Origin: Candidatus Woesearchaeota archaeon
GTDB taxonomy: Archaea > Nanobdellota > Nanobdellia > Woesearchaeales > WAPY01
Assembly (NCBI GenBank): GCA_049700835.1
Contig: JBNAUL010000002.1
Coordinates: 153,967 to 217,966 of the forward strand
DNA length: 64,000 nucleotides
Reading direction: 5' to 3'
Positions within the stretch are counted from its first letter, which is position 1; each line of letters begins with the position of its first letter. The position numbers were made by a program, and so were the translations under genes. A model generated the notes under the pieces. That model worked only from the letters and a program-made list of their open reading frames with translations, did no database searches and had not been told where the DNA came from. This document shows, piece after piece, positions 16,419 through 58,801 of this stretch.

Positions 16419-16521
16419 TGGGCCCGCGGAGATTTGAACTCCGGACCGCTCGATAACCAAAATTTTTAAAATTTTTATGATTTATCAGTCGAGTGCTCCA
16501 ACCAGTCTAAGCTACGGGCCC
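16419..16521 (-). tRNA. tRNA-Ile(GAU) with 28-nt canonical 37/38 intron (16455-16482)
   Basis: Cloverleaf GGGCCCG/CGGGCCC, anticodon stem CTCGA/TCGAG, T loop TTCAAAT; relaxed BHB (CUGA/UUGG); no encoded CCA. Confidence 0.93.
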
Positions 16522-16529
16522 TAAAAAAG

Positions 16530-16602
16530 CGCCCCCGGCCAGATTTGAACTGGCGACCTCGCGGTTAACAGCCGCGCGCTCCAACCACTAAGCTACAGGG
16601 GC
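16530..16602 (-). tRNA. tRNA-Asn(GUU), intronless
   Basis: 73-nt cloverleaf, CGCGG-CT-GTT-AA-CCGCG. Confidence 0.96.
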
Positions 16603-22446: not shown

Positions 22447-23379
22447 ATGGCACAAGAAAAGGAAAAAAGAGAGGAATCTGAGGATTTTGAGAACCAAGTT
22501 AACAGCGTTGAAGCTGTTTTATTTGCATCTGGAAAACCAATGACCGCAGAGGAGATATCAAAGATATGCAAGCTTAGTAACGAAGAAGTTCTTAAGGCGC
22601 TGGGGTTTTTAAAAAAGAGATACGAGAGCGGAACTTCTCTAACTCTTATAGAATACAACAATGCATGGAAACTCACAGTAAGGGAGAAATTTATTGGTCA
22701 TGTTAGGAAGATTGTGCCTCACACAGAACTTACAAAAACCCTTCTTGAAACCCTTGCAGTGATTGCATGGAAAGCCCCTGTTTTACAGTCAGACATAATA
22801 AAGATAAGAACTAACAAAGCATATGACCACATAAACGAACTTGCAGCTCAGGGCTTTATAACAAAAGAAAAGCATGGAAAAACAGCTCTTTTAAAGCTTA
22901 CAAAAAAGTTTTATGATTATTTTGAAATAGATGAAACAACTGATTTGAGCAAGATCCTTAACAAGATGCAGCCCAGCAGGAAAAAACCACAAGTTGAATT
23001 TTACGGAGAGAAAGAAAGAAAAGCTGAAAACAAACAAAGAAGCATAGAGAAAAAAGAAGAATATAAAGATGAAAATAAGAAAGAAAATGATAAAATAGAA
23101 AGCGCTGATGCTAGCAAGAAAAAAGAAGAAAAAGAAGAAAGAGGATTGCCAAAAAAAGAGCAAAAAAAATTTCATGGGCTTGAAGAAGAACAGGAAGAAG
23201 TAAATGAGCTAAAAGAGAAATCTTCTGAAATCAGGCAGGAGAAAGAAGAGCAAGAAGAAAGCGATAAAGGCATAGAAACCAATAATAACCAAAACAATGA
23301 AAACAGAATAGAGAAAGATTTTAATGATTCTTATGAAAATTATGAATATGATAAGGATTTAAGCAGCAAAAAAGAGTAA
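22447..23379 (+). CDS. scpB: SMC-Scp complex subunit ScpB with long charged C-terminal tail
   Basis: VEAVLFASGKPM, LETLAVIAWKAPVLQSDIIKIR, AYDHINEL, LTKKFYDYF. Confidence 0.92.
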   Translation: MAQEKEKREESEDFENQVNSVEAVLFASGKPMTAEEISKICKLSNEEVLKALGFLKKRYESGTSLTLIEYNNAWKLTVREKFIGHVRKIVPHTELTKTLLETLAVIAWKAPVLQSDIIKIRTNKAYDHINELAAQGFITKEKHGKTALLKLTKKFYDYFEIDETTDLSKILNKMQPSRKKPQVEFYGEKERKAENKQRSIEKKEEYKDENKKENDKIESADASKKKEEKEERGLPKKEQKKFHGLEEEQEEVNELKEKSSEIRQEKEEQEESDKGIETNNNQNNENRIEKDFNDSYENYEYDKDLSSKKE

Positions 23380-23712: not shown

Positions 23713-26166
23713 ATGAAAGAGAAGAAGGAAAACATTAAAGAAGGAAACATTGAAGATGAGATGAAATCCTCTTATCTTGATTATGCAATGTCTGTCATAG
23801 TTGGAAGGGCTCTTCCTGATGTCAAAGACGGGTTAAAACCTGTCCATAGGAGAATTTTGTATACTATGCATCAGATGAAGCTCTTCCACAGCAAGCAGTT
23901 CAAAAAATCAGCAAGAGTTGTTGGAGATGTTCTTGGAAAATACCATCCGCACGGAGACGCTGCTGTTTATGATGCTTTGGTGAGAATGGCTCAGCCTTTT
24001 TCAATGAGATACCCTTTGATTGACGGTCAGGGAAATTTTGGAAGCATTGATGGGGATAGTGCTGCTGCAATGCGTTACACAGAGGTCCGTCTTTCAAAGA
24101 TTGCTGAAGAGTTGTTGAAAGACATTGAGAAGGAAACAGTTGATTTTGGAAAGAATTTTGACAATACCCTTGAAGAGCCGCTCTTCCTTCCTTCCAGAAT
24201 ACCAAACTTATTGCTAAATGGAAGCTCTGGAATTGCTGTTGGAATGGCAACCAACATTCCTCCTCACAACCTGTCAGAGGTTTTTGAAGCATTGGCAAGA
24301 TTAATTGACAATCCTGAAATGAGCATAGAAGGCATAATGAGCATAATAAAAGGTCCTGATTTTCCAACAGGAGGTCTTGTATATTCAAATGGTAATCTTA
24401 TAAATGCCTACAAAAACGGGCGTGGGCAGGTAATTGTAAGGGCAAGAACAGAAGTTGAATCAAAAGCAAAAAAGAATAGCATAATAATCACAGAAATTCC
24501 TTTCCAAGTAAACAAATCTCTGCTTCTCGAAGAAATTGCAAACCTTGTTAAGAACAAAACAATTGAAGGAATTTCTGACATAAGAGATGAAAGTGACAAG
24601 GAAGGAGTTAGGATTGTAATCTCATTAAAGCAGGATGTTAATCCTGAAATAACTCTTAATCAACTATTCCATCATACAAAGTTGCAGACGAATTATGGAA
24701 TAATCATGCTATGCCTTGTTGAAGGCAAGCCAAGAATATTAAACATAAAGGAACTCCTTCTTAATTTCATTGATTACAGGAAGAAAACAATAACAAGGGC
24801 TCTCAATTTTGATTTGAGAAAAGCAAAGGAAAGAGTGCACATAGTAGAAGGGCTTGTAATAGCATTAAAGAGGATTGATGAGGTGATTGCAAAGATTAAG
24901 CAGTCAGGAAACATTGAAGAAGCTAAGAACTCCTTAATGAATGAATTCGGTTTGAGCGAGAAGCAGGCATTGGCAATATTGGAGATGAAACTGCAGAGAT
25001 TATCAAGGTTGGAGTTTCAAAAGACAATTGAAGAAAAGGAATCCCTGCTCAAAACAATTGAGGAACTGAACAGAATTCTTGGCTCTGAAAACGAAATTCT
25101 AAAAATAATGAAAAAGGAATTTGAGGAATTAAAGAATGCTTATGGTGATAAGAGAAGGACAGACATGGTTAAAGAGGAAAGCATTGAGCTTGATGTTGAG
25201 GACTTAATAAAAAGAGAGGATGTTGTGATAACCCTTACCAACAAAGGCTATATAAAAAGAACTTCTCTTAAAGAATACAGAACACAAAACAGAGGAGGTA
25301 GAGGGCTTGTTGGAACTCAAACAAGAGAAGAGGATTTTGTTAAGAATGTTTTAATAGCAAACACTCACTCGTGGTTGTTGTTCTTCACAGACAAGGGAAG
25401 GTTCTTCAGGCTGAAGGTTTATAAGATTCCTGAAACAGGAAGAAATTCAAAAGGAAGGGCTGTTGTAAATCTCTTGGAATTAGAGCAAGGGGAAAATATA
25501 ACAGCGCTTCTTCCAATTGAGGAATTCAACTCTGGTTTAATATTGATGGCAACATCAAGAGGAACAATTAAAAAATCAAGATTGAGCGATTACTTCACAT
25601 CAAGAAATGGAGTAAGAGCAATACTCTTGGAAGAAAATGACAAGCTTATAGGAGTTGACATAGTAAGAGAAAACAATTTTGTAATACTTGCAACAAAAAA
25701 CGGGTTTGCAGCAAGATTCAAAGAGGATGAAGTAAGAACAATGGGAAGGGTGACAAGAGGAGTCTGCGGAATAAAATTAAAGAGCAGCGATGAGGTAGTA
25801 GGAATGGTCGTGTCTGAAAGCGAAGAAGAAACCCTTCTCACAACCAGCGAAAACGGATTTGGAAAGAGAACTTATGTCAAGGATTACAGACTAACAGGAA
25901 GGGCTGTAAATGGAGTTATAAACCTTAAGGTAAATGAAAAAACAGGAAAGGTTGTTGCATTAAAAACAGTAAATGACAATGATGAGATAATACTGATTAC
26001 AAAGTTTGGTTACACAATAAGGCTTCCTGTTAAGCAAATATCTGTTGTTGGCAGAAACACGCAAGGAGTAAGACTTATAAAACTTGAACAAGAAGACAAG
26101 GTTGTAGGAGTTGAGAGGATAAGAGGGGATAACAAACTTGATAATTCAAATCAGGAAGCAAAATAA
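23713..26166 (+). CDS. gyrA: DNA gyrase subunit A
   Basis: [32 protein letters not shown] catalytic Tyr, GyrA-box QNRGGRG, C-terminal beta-pinwheel repeats. Confidence 0.96.
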
Positions 26167-28537: not shown

Positions 28538-28864
28538 ATGGATAAAAAGATGATTTGGTCTTTTTTTATTAAAGAGGAACTTGAGTTTGTTGAGATTTTT
28601 AAAACAGGGAACAAGTTTTTGACAAAGGGTTCAAAACACGAGTTCTCAATAAAAATTATACTTCTTGTAATGCTCCTGCTTCTACTCAAGATAGCTGTTC
28701 TTCCTTCTCCTTCATCGCTTCAGTTAGTCCTCTCAATCTTTTTAACAATCGCTCTTATTCTGCTTGTTTTTAAATTCTTCCAATTATTAAATACATCTGT
28801 GAAAAGGTTCTCCATATATGGAATATTCTTTATCATTCTTGTTTTAGTGATATTCATTGTTTGA
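28538..28864 (+). CDS. Membrane protein
   Basis: Three hydrophobic segments. Confidence 0.6.
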   Translation: MDKKMIWSFFIKEELEFVEIFKTGNKFLTKGSKHEFSIKIILLVMLLLLLKIAVLPSPSSLQLVLSIFLTIALILLVFKFFQLLNTSVKRFSIYGIFFIILVLVIFIV

Positions 28865-28914: not shown

Positions 28915-29196
28915 ATGGGAAATTTTGTCTTAAAGGTCTTGGGGGTTCTTGATTTGGCAGTTGCAATAGTGCTTTCATGCAGCACTTTTCTTTCTGCAAG
29001 CATTGTAAAGCAAGCAGGAATTTATCTACTTCTAAAAGGAGTTCTTTTCTCGTTCTCAGGTGACATCGCAAGCATTCTTGACATACTTTCTGCAATATAC
29101 ATTATTGTTCTGAGTTTTGGCATAAGCAGTCCTTTCATTTCAATAATTGTTTTTGTCTATCTCTTGCAAAAGGCGCTTTACAGTATTGTAACATAA
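28915..29196 (+). CDS. Small membrane protein
   Basis: Hydrophobic 93 aa from ATG 28915; LGVLDL..LLKG..DIASILD pattern. Confidence 0.65.
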   Translation: MGNFVLKVLGVLDLAVAIVLSCSTFLSASIVKQAGIYLLLKGVLFSFSGDIASILDILSAIYIIVLSFGISSPFISIIVFVYLLQKALYSIVT

Positions 29197-29347
29197 CATG
29201 TTAAAACATTTATGCAAAAAATCAAGATATAAAAAAATTTAAGAAAAAAGGTTTGCATTCTAATAAATGCTTACAATAAATCTTAGATTATCTTTTAGAT
29301 TATTCTTTTATCCTCTTATTTTGTTTATCCTATTTTTTGTTCTTGCT

Positions 29348-31372
29348 CTATTTTTCATTGCTTTCCTGTTCATTTTCACCATTGCTGTTAGAACCCTTTT
29401 TTCTGAACCTGCTGTTTATTATGTTCCTCAGTATGTCTCTCAATTTCTCCTTTTTGAATTCAAAACCCAAGATGTTGTTTATCTTTTTTAACTCCTCTTT
29501 AAGTTCTTCTATCTTTTTGCTGTCGTCGCAATTCAACTGAAATGTAAGCAGCGCTCCTCTCTTTGTTGTTTTGCTCTTTACAGAAGTTACATTAATCTTC
29601 CTTGAAGAAATTGCTTTAAGTATGTCAGAAAGAAGCCCAACCCTGTCAATAAAACTAACATTCAAGGTGTATTCCTCGCCCTTGTCCTCTGATTTCCATT
29701 CCAAGAGAATTGTCTGCTCCCTTGGGCTTGAAAATTGGTTGATGCAGTTCTTCTTGTGAATAGTGTATTTTCCATCTTTTGTCTTTATAGCTATAATCTC
29801 GTCTCCGTATTGAGGATTACAGCACTTTCCAAACTTTACCAAAGAGGGTTTTATCCCTTTCAAATCAAGCAGTTTAAGGAGCTGCTGTTCGCTTAGTTCT
29901 GCATTCGCTTTAATGCTCTTGTCCTCTTTTGGAATTCCAAGAGCTTTCCTTATTTTTTGTGAAGCGGTTTTTGTCTTTACGAATTTGAGCCAACTGCTTG
30001 ACGGCTTTGCGTTTTTTGAGGTTATTATCTCAACAACATCCCCGCTTTCAAGCTCCTTGTCTAAGCTCACTATTTTTCCATTTACAATCGCCTTGCTGCA
30101 CTTATCTCCCAAATGTGTATGAACAGCATATGCAAAATCAACAGGGGTTGAACCTTCTGGAAGTATTACCGAATCACCTTTTGGAGTGAGAACAACAATC
30201 TCGTTTTTGAACAAATCAATCTTTAAGTCCTCAAAGAATTTTTCTGCGCTCTCTGCTTCCTGAACCCAAGAGAGTATTCTCTTGAGCCAGTTTATTCTCC
30301 TATCAAAATCAGAATCCTTCTCTGTTCCTTTGTAGCGCCAATGAGCAGCAATTCCGTCCTCTGCATTGTAATGCATCTCCCAGGTTCTTATCTGAACCTC
30401 AATCGGCTTTTTTTCATAGAGCAAGGTTGTGTGGAGCGACTGGTAACCATTTGGTTTTGGAATTGCAATGTAATCCCTGAATTCTTTCATTATTGGAATG
30501 TATTTTGAATGCAGGTAGCCAAGGATTTTGTAGCAGTCATCAACTGTCTTTGTTATTATCCTTATCGCTATCAAGTCGTGTATCTCCTCAAAGCCCTTGT
30601 TTTTAGTAATCATCTTTTTGTAAATGCTGTAAAAATTTTTGGCTCTTCCAAACACCTCTACTTCATACCCATTTTCTGAAAGTTCCTTCTTAAACTTGTC
30701 AACAATTTCCTTTACTTCTGCTTCCCTTTCTTCTCTTTTCTTTCCAATCTTTTTTTTCAATTCTTCGTATGGTTCTGGATTAAGGTACTTAAAACAAAGA
30801 TCTTCCATTTCTGATTTTATGTTGTACATTCCGAGCTTGTATGCTATAGGAACATAGATTTCAAGGGTTTCTTTTGCCATTTCCTTCTGCCTTTCTGGTT
30901 CTAAAAACTTTAATGTCTTTATGTTATGCAATCTGTCAGCGAGCTTTACAAGTATTACTCTGTAGTCCTTGCCTGTTGCAAGAATTATCTTTCTTATGTT
31001 CTCTGCTATGTTCTCCTCTTTGCTCAACTTCACTCGCTGTATCTTTGTAACTCCATCAACTATCGTTGCAACATCCTCTCCAAATTCCTTCTTTATATCT
31101 TCTATCTTTACAGCAGTGTCTTCAACGCAGTCGTGAAGCAGGGCTGCAACTATTGTTTGCGTGTCGCATCTTAATTCAGAGAGAATATAAGCTACCTCTG
31201 TAAGGTGTATGAAATACGGCTCTCCTGATTTTCTAAGCTGCCTCTCATGCTTCTTTTTTGCAAAATCGTATGCCTTGCTTATCAGCTGAAAGTCGAGTTT
31301 TGGATTGAGCTCTTTAATGCTTTTCAGAAATTCCTCTTTGCTCATTTCCTTTGTGACTTCTGCGTAGGACAT
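29348..31372 (-). CDS. rel: Long RelA/SpoT homologue, bifunctional (p)ppGpp synthetase/hydrolase
   Basis: HD: RKSGEPYFIH, AALLHDCVEDT, VKLADRLHN. SYNTH: GRAKNFYSIYKKM, HDLIAIR, DYIAIPKPNGYQSLHT, EVQIRT, GIAAHWRYK. TGS: TPVDFAYAVHT. ZFD: KCCNP...HKKNC. ACT: DRVGLLSDI. Confidence 0.95.
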   Translation of the reverse strand: MSYAEVTKEMSKEEFLKSIKELNPKLDFQLISKAYDFAKKKHERQLRKSGEPYFIHLTEVAYILSELRCDTQTIVAALLHDCVEDTAVKIEDIKKEFGEDVATIVDGVTKIQRVKLSKEENIAENIRKIILATGKDYRVILVKLADRLHNIKTLKFLEPERQKEMAKETLEIYVPIAYKLGMYNIKSEMEDLCFKYLNPEPYEELKKKIGKKREEREAEVKEIVDKFKKELSENGYEVEVFGRAKNFYSIYKKMITKNKGFEEIHDLIAIRIITKTVDDCYKILGYLHSKYIPIMKEFRDYIAIPKPNGYQSLHTTLLYEKKPIEVQIRTWEMHYNAEDGIAAHWRYKGTEKDSDFDRRINWLKRILSWVQEAESAEKFFEDLKIDLFKNEIVVLTPKGDSVILPEGSTPVDFAYAVHTHLGDKCSKAIVNGKIVSLDKELESGDVVEIITSKNAKPSSSWLKFVKTKTASQKIRKALGIPKEDKSIKANAELSEQQLLKLLDLKGIKPSLVKFGKCCNPQYGDEIIAIKTKDGKYTIHKKNCINQFSSPREQTILLEWKSEDKGEEYTLNVSFIDRVGLLSDILKAISSRKINVTSVKSKTTKRGALLTFQLNCDDSKKIEELKEELKKINNILGFEFKKEKLRDILRNIINSRFRKKGSNSNGENEQESNEK

Positions 31373-31459
31373 ATTAATACAATGTTTATTCTATTATTAA
31401 AAACTTTTGATTCTACAGGAAAAAATAAAACGAGAATGCTTGAAGTTTGAGAAATTAAA

Positions 31460-31588
31460 TCCCCGCCCCCGGACTCGAACCAGGAACCTTCCGGTTTCAA
31501 CGACCAGCTGTCCTGCTTTCATTCCTTCAAATTATGAGCGTCTGCAAGAATCTACAGCCGGACGCTCTAACCATTGAGCTAGGCGGGG
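31460..31588 (-). tRNA. tRNA-Tyr(GUA) with 56-nt 37/38 intron (31496-31551)
   Basis: C1-G72 acceptor CCCCGCC/GGCGGGG, TCCGG-CT-GTA-G[intron]A-CCGGA, T loop TTCGAGT. Confidence 0.92.
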
Positions 31589-53993: not shown

Positions 53994-54099
53994 CTAATTA
54001 TTCTATTTAAATTATATTGAATAAAATGCAGTTCTTTTTTTCCATTTAATAGCAGAATAAAAAAGAGAATAAAAAGAGAAAACCATACATAGGTAAAAC

Positions 54100-56997
<2,898 letters not shown>

Positions 56998-57120
56998 TTG
57001 TTTTACCTATGTATGGTCTCATTAACATCAACCTTAACCTCCATTATAATATTCTTATAATGAAGGCAAACTCTTTTCAAATTCATTTATGAAAAGGATT
57101 TAACCTTAAATAATTTTAAA

Positions 57121-57234
57121 TGGACCTGTCGGGAATTTCAATGATTTTAGCATTTAAAAAATGCTAAAAGCTTGTTTGAACCCGAGGCCCCCGCCTTGCA
57201 AGGGCGATGCTCTACCAGGCTGAGCTACAGGCCC
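57121..57234 (-). tRNA. tRNA-Ala(UGC) in the rRNA spacer with 40-nt T-loop 59/60 intron (57135-57174)
   Basis: G3-U70 acceptor; anticodon TGC; BHB central helix TTCA/TGAA with bulges AAC, ATT; splicing gives TTCAAAT. Confidence 0.93.
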
Positions 57235-57288
57235 ATAAACGAATATGAAATAGAAGTGAGTAAAAAGGTTTTAAAATTTTAAAAATAA

Positions 57289-58801
<1,513 letters not shown>

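Follow-up and report, generated by a model that had tools for sequence, protein, structure and literature searches.

Can an archaeon make and break down (p)ppGpp with an enzyme of the bacterial Rel type? The question is raised by a 64,000-nucleotide stretch of a Candidatus Woesearchaeota genome (GenBank assembly GCA_049700835.1, contig JBNAUL010000002.1, positions 153,967 to 217,966), hereafter the window, whose positions are used throughout. One gene of the window, here called rel, encodes a complete long RelA/SpoT homologue (RSH). Archaea are described as lacking long RSHs in the relevant part of Atkinson et al. 2011 (PMC3153485). A preliminary description of the window had proposed an intact 674-amino-acid (aa) long RSH with all domains in the bacterial order. 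Pfam and TIGR00691 bore this out, and every motif that it named was present. Judged from its sequence, rel probably encodes an active bifunctional Rel-type (p)ppGpp synthetase/hydrolase, and we put the probability of this at about 0.75. Its residence in an archaeal genome as a complete long RSH makes rel a fair candidate for archaeal (p)ppGpp signalling.

rel is a single open reading frame (ORF) of 674 aa on the minus strand (ATG at 31372, stop codon at 29348-29350), and the frame is open for just 6 codons 5' of the ATG. Profile classification agreed with the long RSH call: the product scored 705.7 bits against TIGR00691 (spoT_relA, NCBIfam; cut-off 499.2), and 706.1 bits in the genome-wide profile scan. 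The SpoT equivalog NF008303 gave 527.5 bits (cut-off 947) and the E. coli-type RelA equivalog NF008124 gave 406.2 bits (cut-off 728). Consequently, the protein is a generic "Rel", orthologous to neither E. coli paralogue. Its best solved relatives were the mycobacterial Rel 8fr8_I (E 8.5e-149) and the B. subtilis Rel 6yxa_A (E 1.2e-144). Pfam placed an HD domain ahead of a RelA_SpoT domain, and the C-terminal region carried a TGS domain with its conserved His, a CC-H-C zinc finger and an ACT/RRM domain; the core of the alpha-helical (AH) domain that belongs between TGS and zinc finger in long RSHs was missing. Every domain was visible in a confident AlphaFold2 (AF2) model built from a 76-sequence alignment (mean pLDDT 85.7, pTM 0.66), with a beta-alpha-beta-beta-alpha-beta ACT/RRM fold. 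The whole genome contained one PF04607 (synthetase) and one PF13328 (HD_4) match, both of them rel, the sole RSH. The gene is divided as follows.

29348..31372, minus strand: rel, complete long RSH (Rel-type) coding sequence including the stop codon (ORF translation, TIGR00691, solved relatives)
30827..31273, minus strand: HD (p)ppGpp hydrolase domain, aa 34-182 (Pfam HD_4, E 4.6e-46)
30320..30649, minus strand: (p)ppGpp synthetase domain, aa 242-351 (Pfam RelA_SpoT, E 2.8e-41)
30473..30484, minus strand: EFRD, aa 297-300, at the position of Rel RxKD / RelA ExDD (aligned to RFKD of solved Rel)
30020..30196, minus strand: TGS domain, aa 393-451, with H418 (Pfam TGS, E 4.6e-22)
29825..30019, minus strand: short linker, aa 452-516 (linker table, E. 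coli alignment, AF2 model)
29693..29824, minus strand: zinc-finger domain (ZFD/RIS), aa 517-560, with C517, C518, H539 and C543 (alignments, C-terminal region of 8fr8_I)
29447..29677, minus strand: ACT/RRM domain, aa 566-642 (Pfam ACT_4, E 4.3e-10 at aa 569-635)
29351..29446, minus strand: C-terminal extension, aa 643-674 (alignment, AF2 model)

The hydrolase motifs of rel were intact in the motif table (H56, H80-D81, E84-D85 and DRLHN at 146-150), and H56, H80, D81, E84, D146, R147, H149 and N150 were unchanged in an alignment of 12 diverse archaeal homologues. The synthetase motifs were GRAK (242-245), D266, R271, YQSLH (310-314) and EVQIR (325-329). In a wider alignment of 32 archaeal and 31 bacterial copies, D266 and R271 were identical in all rows of both groups, as were the Y[Q/K/R]S[L/I]H and ExQxR positions in being kept (32/32 and 31/31). 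None of the 32 archaeal rows departed from the synthetase residues, which were likewise unchanged in the 12 homologues and in the 76-sequence alignment. As rel is the sole RSH of its genome, both activities must sit in its product: the synthetase domain would transfer pyrophosphate from ATP onto GDP or GTP to give (p)ppGpp, and the HD domain would break (p)ppGpp down.

The hydrolase site of the archaeal copies was intact in the rel product and 19 others and degenerate in 12 of 32, with HD changed to HG, HT, QS, HH, QG or YD, or with ED and DRLHN lost. The degenerate copies were the following.

Hydrolase-degenerate loci L103-L114: genomes G257, G201, G179, G114, G067, G059, G110, G072, G077, G046, G183 and G033

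A second HD_4 gene (E ≤ 1e-5) was found in none of these 12 genomes, compared to 3 of 12 genomes with an intact Rel. The 12 lineages would make (p)ppGpp without a recognisable hydrolase. These data bear on the possibility that the protein is mainly a SpoT-like hydrolase or scavenger with a weak or silent synthetase, whose chief work would be to degrade (p)ppGpp or similar nucleotides that the cell takes up from neighbouring bacterial or host cells. The wholly intact hydrolase motifs of rel and the non-canonical EFRD of its synthetase site would suit such a role, as would the dependence of DPANN cells on other cells for nucleotides, stated in the relevant section of PMC8407392. However, the synthetase catalytic residues are unchanged clade-wide, the site that degenerates in 12 of the 32 rows is the hydrolase and not the synthetase, and the synthetase segment is the most constrained part of the gene, with the lowest proportion of nonsynonymous differences (pN, 0.078) in a same-genus comparison. 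A clade that loses hydrolase residues and never synthetase residues argues that selection protects synthesis. We regard the scavenger role as improbable.

All hydrolase (H, HD, ED, DRLHN) and synthetase residues that define bifunctional (HS) Rel were intact in rel, and its one departure was at RxKD, where EFRD reverses the charge of the first residue and alters the third conservatively. A link of the RxKD/ExDD motif to Mg2+ dependence and GDP/GTP preference has been proposed. The preliminary description had read EFRD as a hybrid of the Rel and RelA motifs; EFRD is indeed present at aa 297-300, but the hybrid is no trait of the archaeal enzymes. Among the 120 nearest homologues, RFKD, the archaeal consensus, was the commonest form (42), with RFDD in 28, KFKD in 7, EFRD in 4 and no motif by pattern in 9; all 4 EFRD carriers belonged to the window's own close group. 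RFKD was also found in 29 of the 31 bacterial rows, and some sister archaeal lineages have EFDD, the RelA type. We take EFRD to be a genus-level variant, not a property of the archaeal clade.

Next, we considered whether rel belongs to the archaeal genome at all. It is carried on a 439,470-base contig of an assembly of 4 contigs (1.07 Mb, 32.6% GC, 98.66% complete, 0.25% contamination). The preliminary description had argued from the archaeal surroundings against contamination, and the linkage stands: rRNA genes, the RNA polymerase operon and intron-bearing tRNAs lie on the same contig. The window also encodes archaeal-type ProRS, RpoH, split RpoB''/B', split RpoA'/A'', aIF2-alpha and an ATP-dependent DNA ligase. 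The RNA genes are listed here.

54090-57009, minus strand: archaeal large-subunit (23S) rRNA
57291-58801, minus strand: archaeal small-subunit (16S) rRNA
31460-31588, minus strand: tRNA-Tyr(GUA) with a 59-nt intron after the anticodon loop position (Rfam; missed by ARAGORN)
16419-16521, minus strand: intron-type tRNA of 103 nt (not called by ARAGORN)
16529-16602, minus strand: tRNA-Asn(GTT), adjoining the 103-nt intron-type tRNA (ARAGORN)

The tRNA-Tyr(GUA) gene precedes rel by 87 nt in the same orientation, with a T-run after the tRNA at 31420-31430.

The borders of the gene were examined in low-depth Logan metagenome contigs (X1 and X2) from two hot-spring-labelled studies. These contigs bridged both rel borders, and no piece spanned the whole stretch; X1 may be the source sample of the assembly. 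The bridging pieces were as follows.

29020-29918: X1 record 3
31069-31466: X1 record 5
29283-29718: X2 record 10

Contig depth leapt over 30004-30170, a conserved TGS stretch (56x in X1 and 12x in X2). Since loose ends mark both sides of this interval, the leap is attributed to other organisms in the same samples with closely similar Rel genes.

The long RSH was common among relatives. A genome was counted as positive when a protein scored over the family cut-off, and 131 of 301 genomes of the phylum (~44%; each at least 90% complete) were positive, single-contig or closed genomes among them. Bacterial controls were over the cut-off in 10 of 10 cases, and model archaea were under it. Within the order, 21 of 41 genomes (this one included) had a long RSH, and so did all 6 of the window's family. 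Occurrence was patchy: some families were almost or entirely positive (33/36, 8/8, 7/7 and 6/6), and others had no positive genome (0/24 and 0/5). Identity to the rel product was 48-90% for the 120 closest proteins in the database, the query itself aside. Those named by organism came from Candidatus Woesearchaeota, Nanoarchaeota, Nanoarchaeia and one Thermoproteota archaeon, and were annotated as RelA/SpoT family or bifunctional (p)ppGpp synthetase/hydrolase. When 185,579 species genomes were scanned with patterns derived from the archaeal alignment, 80 loci were kept, 1 archaeal and 79 bacterial; the latter (36-51% identity) were mostly from Bacillota, with some from Myxococcota, Desulfobacterota and Eremiobacterota. 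The nearest non-archaeal relatives were bacterial Rel proteins (44-51% identity).

Two records in this survey stood out. A locus titled "uncultured Methanosarcinales archaeon" (L015, CAYLQB010000016.1) encodes a Rel identical to that of genome G003, which is of the same family as the window; the record appears to be taxonomically mislabelled. Genome G161, from the same order, has two long RSH types (C13:2889-4289, E 2.7e-188, and C49:5689-7026, E 1.2e-150), which hints at paralogy or transfer within DPANN.

The tree was obtained with an IQ-TREE quick search (LG+C20 PMSF, unrooted) from 32 full-length archaeal and 31 bacterial copies. The bacterial rows were a taxonomically spread selection from the 79 bacterial loci closest to the query and included no candidate phyla radiation (CPR) bacteria. 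Truncated loci (L016, L027, L057, L073 and L087), many redundant Bacillota, the partial archaeal L007, the duplicate L002 and L003 (no RSH) were left out. A single branch parted the 32 archaeal from the 31 bacterial copies (SH-aLRT 100), with rel on the archaeal side, and the archaeal clade was nested in none of the sampled bacterial phyla. In a FastTree analysis with 44 cluster representatives, the archaeal clade took 14 of the 16 short-linker and 0 of the 28 long-linker representatives; the two short-linker outliers had borderline spacings (114 and 116). Of 10 short-linker clusters looked up, one was named by organism, as Nanoarchaeota. The rel product belongs to a monophyletic archaeal Rel clade, probably founded by an old transfer from a bacterial Rel, then inherited and often lost across the class. 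Because, of the archaea sampled, only DPANN have long RSHs, the simplest history is a single ancient transfer from a bacterium into an archaeon, passed on vertically and lost many times; this agrees with the published prediction (PMC8407392).

Compared to its same-genus orthologue over 509 codons, rel had a pN of 0.109, a proportion of synonymous differences (pS) of 0.760 and a pN/pS of 0.14; synonymous sites were saturated (pS 0.76-0.85), and pN/pS is therefore given instead of dN/dS. The gene is under purifying selection. The order rel-orf-rpoH-rpoB'' was common to the same-genus locus L007 only. Searches by tblastn for gyrA, proS, two small ORFs, orf110, rpoH and rpoB in the 32 archaeal Rel loci (~1.5-kb flanks) found them in L007 alone. 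As the neighbours are kept only within the genus, gene order gives no hint of function.

It is against this evidence that two readings have to be judged, in which rel is either contaminating bacterial DNA fused to an archaeal contig or a recently transferred, functionless gene adrift. The bacterial affinity of the nearest non-archaeal relatives could suggest either, and so could the GC content at third codon positions (GC3) of rel, which is 41.6% (98th percentile of the genome's ORFs). Total GC (38.0%, 92nd percentile of 742 ORFs) resembles that of the neighbouring RNA polymerase genes, and the codon-usage log-likelihood is unremarkable (18th percentile). By contrast, the linkage to the archaeal rRNA genes and RNA polymerase operon on one 439-kb contig, the independent contigs across the borders, the orthologues in the 131 genomes, the gene order kept in the same-genus relative, the common deletion of the single archaeal clade (described below) and the low pN/pS all speak for residence. 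The single clade and the pN/pS of 0.14 also dispose of the recent isolated transfer under relaxed selection that the preliminary description had named as fatal to its proposal. We consider contamination or a passenger gene very improbable indeed; as far as sequence data go, both are refuted.

How, then, would the enzyme be controlled? The TGS motif of rel runs from F413 through AYAVHT to T419, and H418 is the counterpart of E. coli RelA H432 in the alignment. This His was unchanged in 32/32 archaeal and 31/31 bacterial rows, the CC-H-C residues were unchanged in all 63 rows, and both held in the 12 archaeal homologues and the 76-sequence alignment. ACT residue D576, equivalent to the L16-contacting D675 of E. 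coli RelA, was retained as D in 25 of the 32 archaeal rows and was E in 5. The region between TGS and zinc finger was different. The segment joining TGS to the CC pair measured 56-80 aa in all 32 archaeal rows (65 aa in rel) and 126-170 aa in all 31 bacterial rows. E. coli RelA residues 511-587 (~77 residues) had no counterpart in the archaeal copies, while the helix after TGS was kept. The "short helical linker" of the preliminary description is indeed short and retains its helix, but what it reflects is the loss of these ~77 residues of the AH core. In the AF2 model, the linker comprised two helices (468-478 and the short 495-501), between which residues 484-491 were modelled with low confidence.

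According to the relevant sections of Loveland et al. (PMC4974054), the AH domain of E. coli RelA spans aa 485-580 with a core at ~520-560; the core packs on the A/R-tRNA, and the last AH helix (linker helix 2) packs on ACT. Since E. coli residues 511-587 are unmatched, the whole archaeal clade is without the AH core and linker helix 2, keeping TGS, one linker helix, the zinc finger and ACT. Beyond ACT, rel has a C-terminal extension with a predicted helix (644-660, low confidence in the model), followed by a basic and then an acidic tail. Among the 12 aligned homologues, a comparable extension was found in just P0001 and P0004, and it is specific to the window's family.

Two modes of control can be weighed from these data. 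In the first, ZFD and ACT would dock the enzyme on the archaeal ribosome, and the TGS His, meeting the CCA end of deacylated A-site tRNA, would switch synthesis on. Coupling to the archaeal ribosome, which the preliminary description had suggested, is plausible, and we give slightly less than an even chance to an enzyme that is still docked and switched in this way. In the second mode, loss of the AH core would have uncoupled the switch from the ribosome, and the ACT/RRM domain, TGS or the C-terminal tail would sense a metabolite (e.g. an amino acid) or a partner. Bacterial Rel/SpoT enzymes are regulated by ligands and partner proteins. The absence of the AH core and linker helix 2 in 32/32 archaeal rows, the added C-terminal helix and charged tail of the window's family, and the partial conservation of the S19 and L16 contact residues would all fit a ribosome-independent Rel, as would the variability of most RIS/ACT contact positions listed for E. 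coli, which differ even within bacteria. However, the TGS His and CC-H-C have stayed unchanged in every archaeal row despite up to ~65% divergence, D576 is kept as D or E in most of them, and TGS, ZFD and ACT are retained in very small genomes, which argues that they still do their ancestral job. Ribosome-independent control, the main rival reading, seems to us rather unlikely.

Several points weigh against the reading of rel as an active Rel enzyme under ribosomal control. The loss of the AH core argues for a changed or lost docking mode. In the host's ribosomal proteins, the S19 patch V-P-F is V-A-R and the L16 pair R-R is R-Q, so that the bacterial docking geometry cannot simply be assumed. 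EFRD here, together with motif variation across the archaeal clade, may mean that substrate preference or regulation differs. The GC3 of rel is somewhat high, and the tree, unrooted and without CPR, can name neither the donor nor the direction of transfer. Moreover, (p)ppGpp was not detected in the archaea examined, Haloferax and Sulfolobus, both of which lack these genes, as reported in the relevant part of PMC10249747.

If rel is nevertheless an active bifunctional Rel, its targets would probably lie among GTP-binding translation factors or other GTPases and among the enzymes of purine salvage, rather than in the archaeal RNA polymerase; these are the obvious candidates, as the sites of the bacterial RNA polymerase cannot apply. 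A wider proposal is more tentative, and we think the odds lean somewhat against it: much of DPANN may run a (p)ppGpp system in which a trimmed Rel without AH core is triggered by the archaeal ribosome and acts on translation GTPases and purine salvage instead of RNA polymerase, with some lineages being synthetase-only. If true, the stringent response would have been rebuilt in the archaeal domain.

The remaining features of the locus are minor.

31394..31403, minus strand: possible archaeal TATA-like element TTTTTAATAA, found by eye, its centre ~26 nt before the rel ATG
28538-28864, plus strand: small ORF beside rel, 108 aa
28861-29196, plus strand: small ORF beside rel, 111 aa
31756-32088, minus strand: small ORF beside rel, 110 aa

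The TATA-like element, if genuine, would point to a leaderless or near-leaderless rel mRNA; similar strings are common at 32.6% GC. The three small ORFs had no Pfam or NCBIfam family match, even at E values up to 1, and the 110-aa ORF shared 85% identity with the copy of the same-genus relative. The linked 16S-23S operon (54090-58801, minus strand) has 47-48% GC, compared to 32.6% for the genome, and its spacer contains a weak 58-nt tRNA-like match (57177-57234, 33.9 bits). Genes for a bacterial-type DNA gyrase subunit A (23713-26166, plus strand) and ScpB (22447-23379, plus strand) lie beside archaeal core genes, and gyrase may be another bacterial-origin gene of this genome.

The novelty claimed by the preliminary description for a long RSH in archaea was overstated, as its presence has been in print since 2021 (PMC8407392, relevant part) and many orthologues are annotated in GenBank. 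The pertinent sections of that paper (Li et al. 2021) report RelA/SpoT in 41.7% of Woesearchaeota, 69.0% of Diapherotrites, 21.3% of Pacearchaeota and 19.0% of Nanoarchaeota, with a predicted bacterial origin. They deal with presence and predicted origin, and contain no architecture, motif or biochemical analysis. The portion searched of the supplement to the 2020 RSH census (PMC7229694) had no rows for Woesearchaeota, Nanoarchaeota, Diapherotrites or Pacearchaeota. A full-text literature search found no paper on the architecture, AH loss or assays of DPANN Rel proteins. rel is another member of a published yet unstudied group, and its presence in DPANN is not new. According to the relevant part of a 2023 review (PMC10249747), archaea have no (p)ppGpp signalling, or none of importance, and a 2026 paper says likewise (PMC13728122). 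Against such statements, nearly half of the sampled genomes of the phylum keep a conserved Rel that purifying selection maintains. rel is a good test object, being intact, bifunctional by sequence and the sole RSH of a near-complete genome. It could show if an archaeal lineage makes (p)ppGpp, and if a Rel without AH core can be activated by the ribosome.

Among known systems, the bifunctional Rel of Bacillota and Actinobacteria (6yxa of B. subtilis, the mycobacterial 8fr8 and 1vj7 of S. equisimilis) has the same domain order as rel. Identity to the bifunctional bacterial enzymes is ~45-51% over the HD, synthetase and TGS domains, and the two share intact hydrolase and synthetase residues, the TGS His, CC-H-C and ACT. 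Unlike them, rel has a 65-aa linker (compared to 126-170) without AH core, EFRD in place of RFKD and a 32-aa C-terminal extension; it also falls on the archaeal side of the tree, in a host with archaeal ribosomes and RNA polymerase. With E. coli RelA (monofunctional, hS; 5iqr and 5kps), rel has in common the long RSH form with TGS, ZFD/RIS and ACT, the equivalences H418=H432 and D576=D675, and an E as first residue of the RxKD/ExDD motif. However, the hydrolase of rel is intact and that of RelA is a pseudo-hydrolase, and the third motif residue is a basic R in rel, not D. rel belongs to the DPANN RelA/SpoT set reported by Li et al. 2021 (PMC8407392) and annotated in GenBank, with the same compact length (~630-675 aa), and differs from the other DPANN homologues only in its genus-level EFRD and C-terminal tail. 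Finally, the hydrolase-degenerate archaeal RSHs of sister lineages in the same class or order share with rel the clade, the short linker and the synthetase, TGS and zinc-finger residues; they have lost the HD, ED and DRLHN residues, whereas rel keeps its hydrolase.

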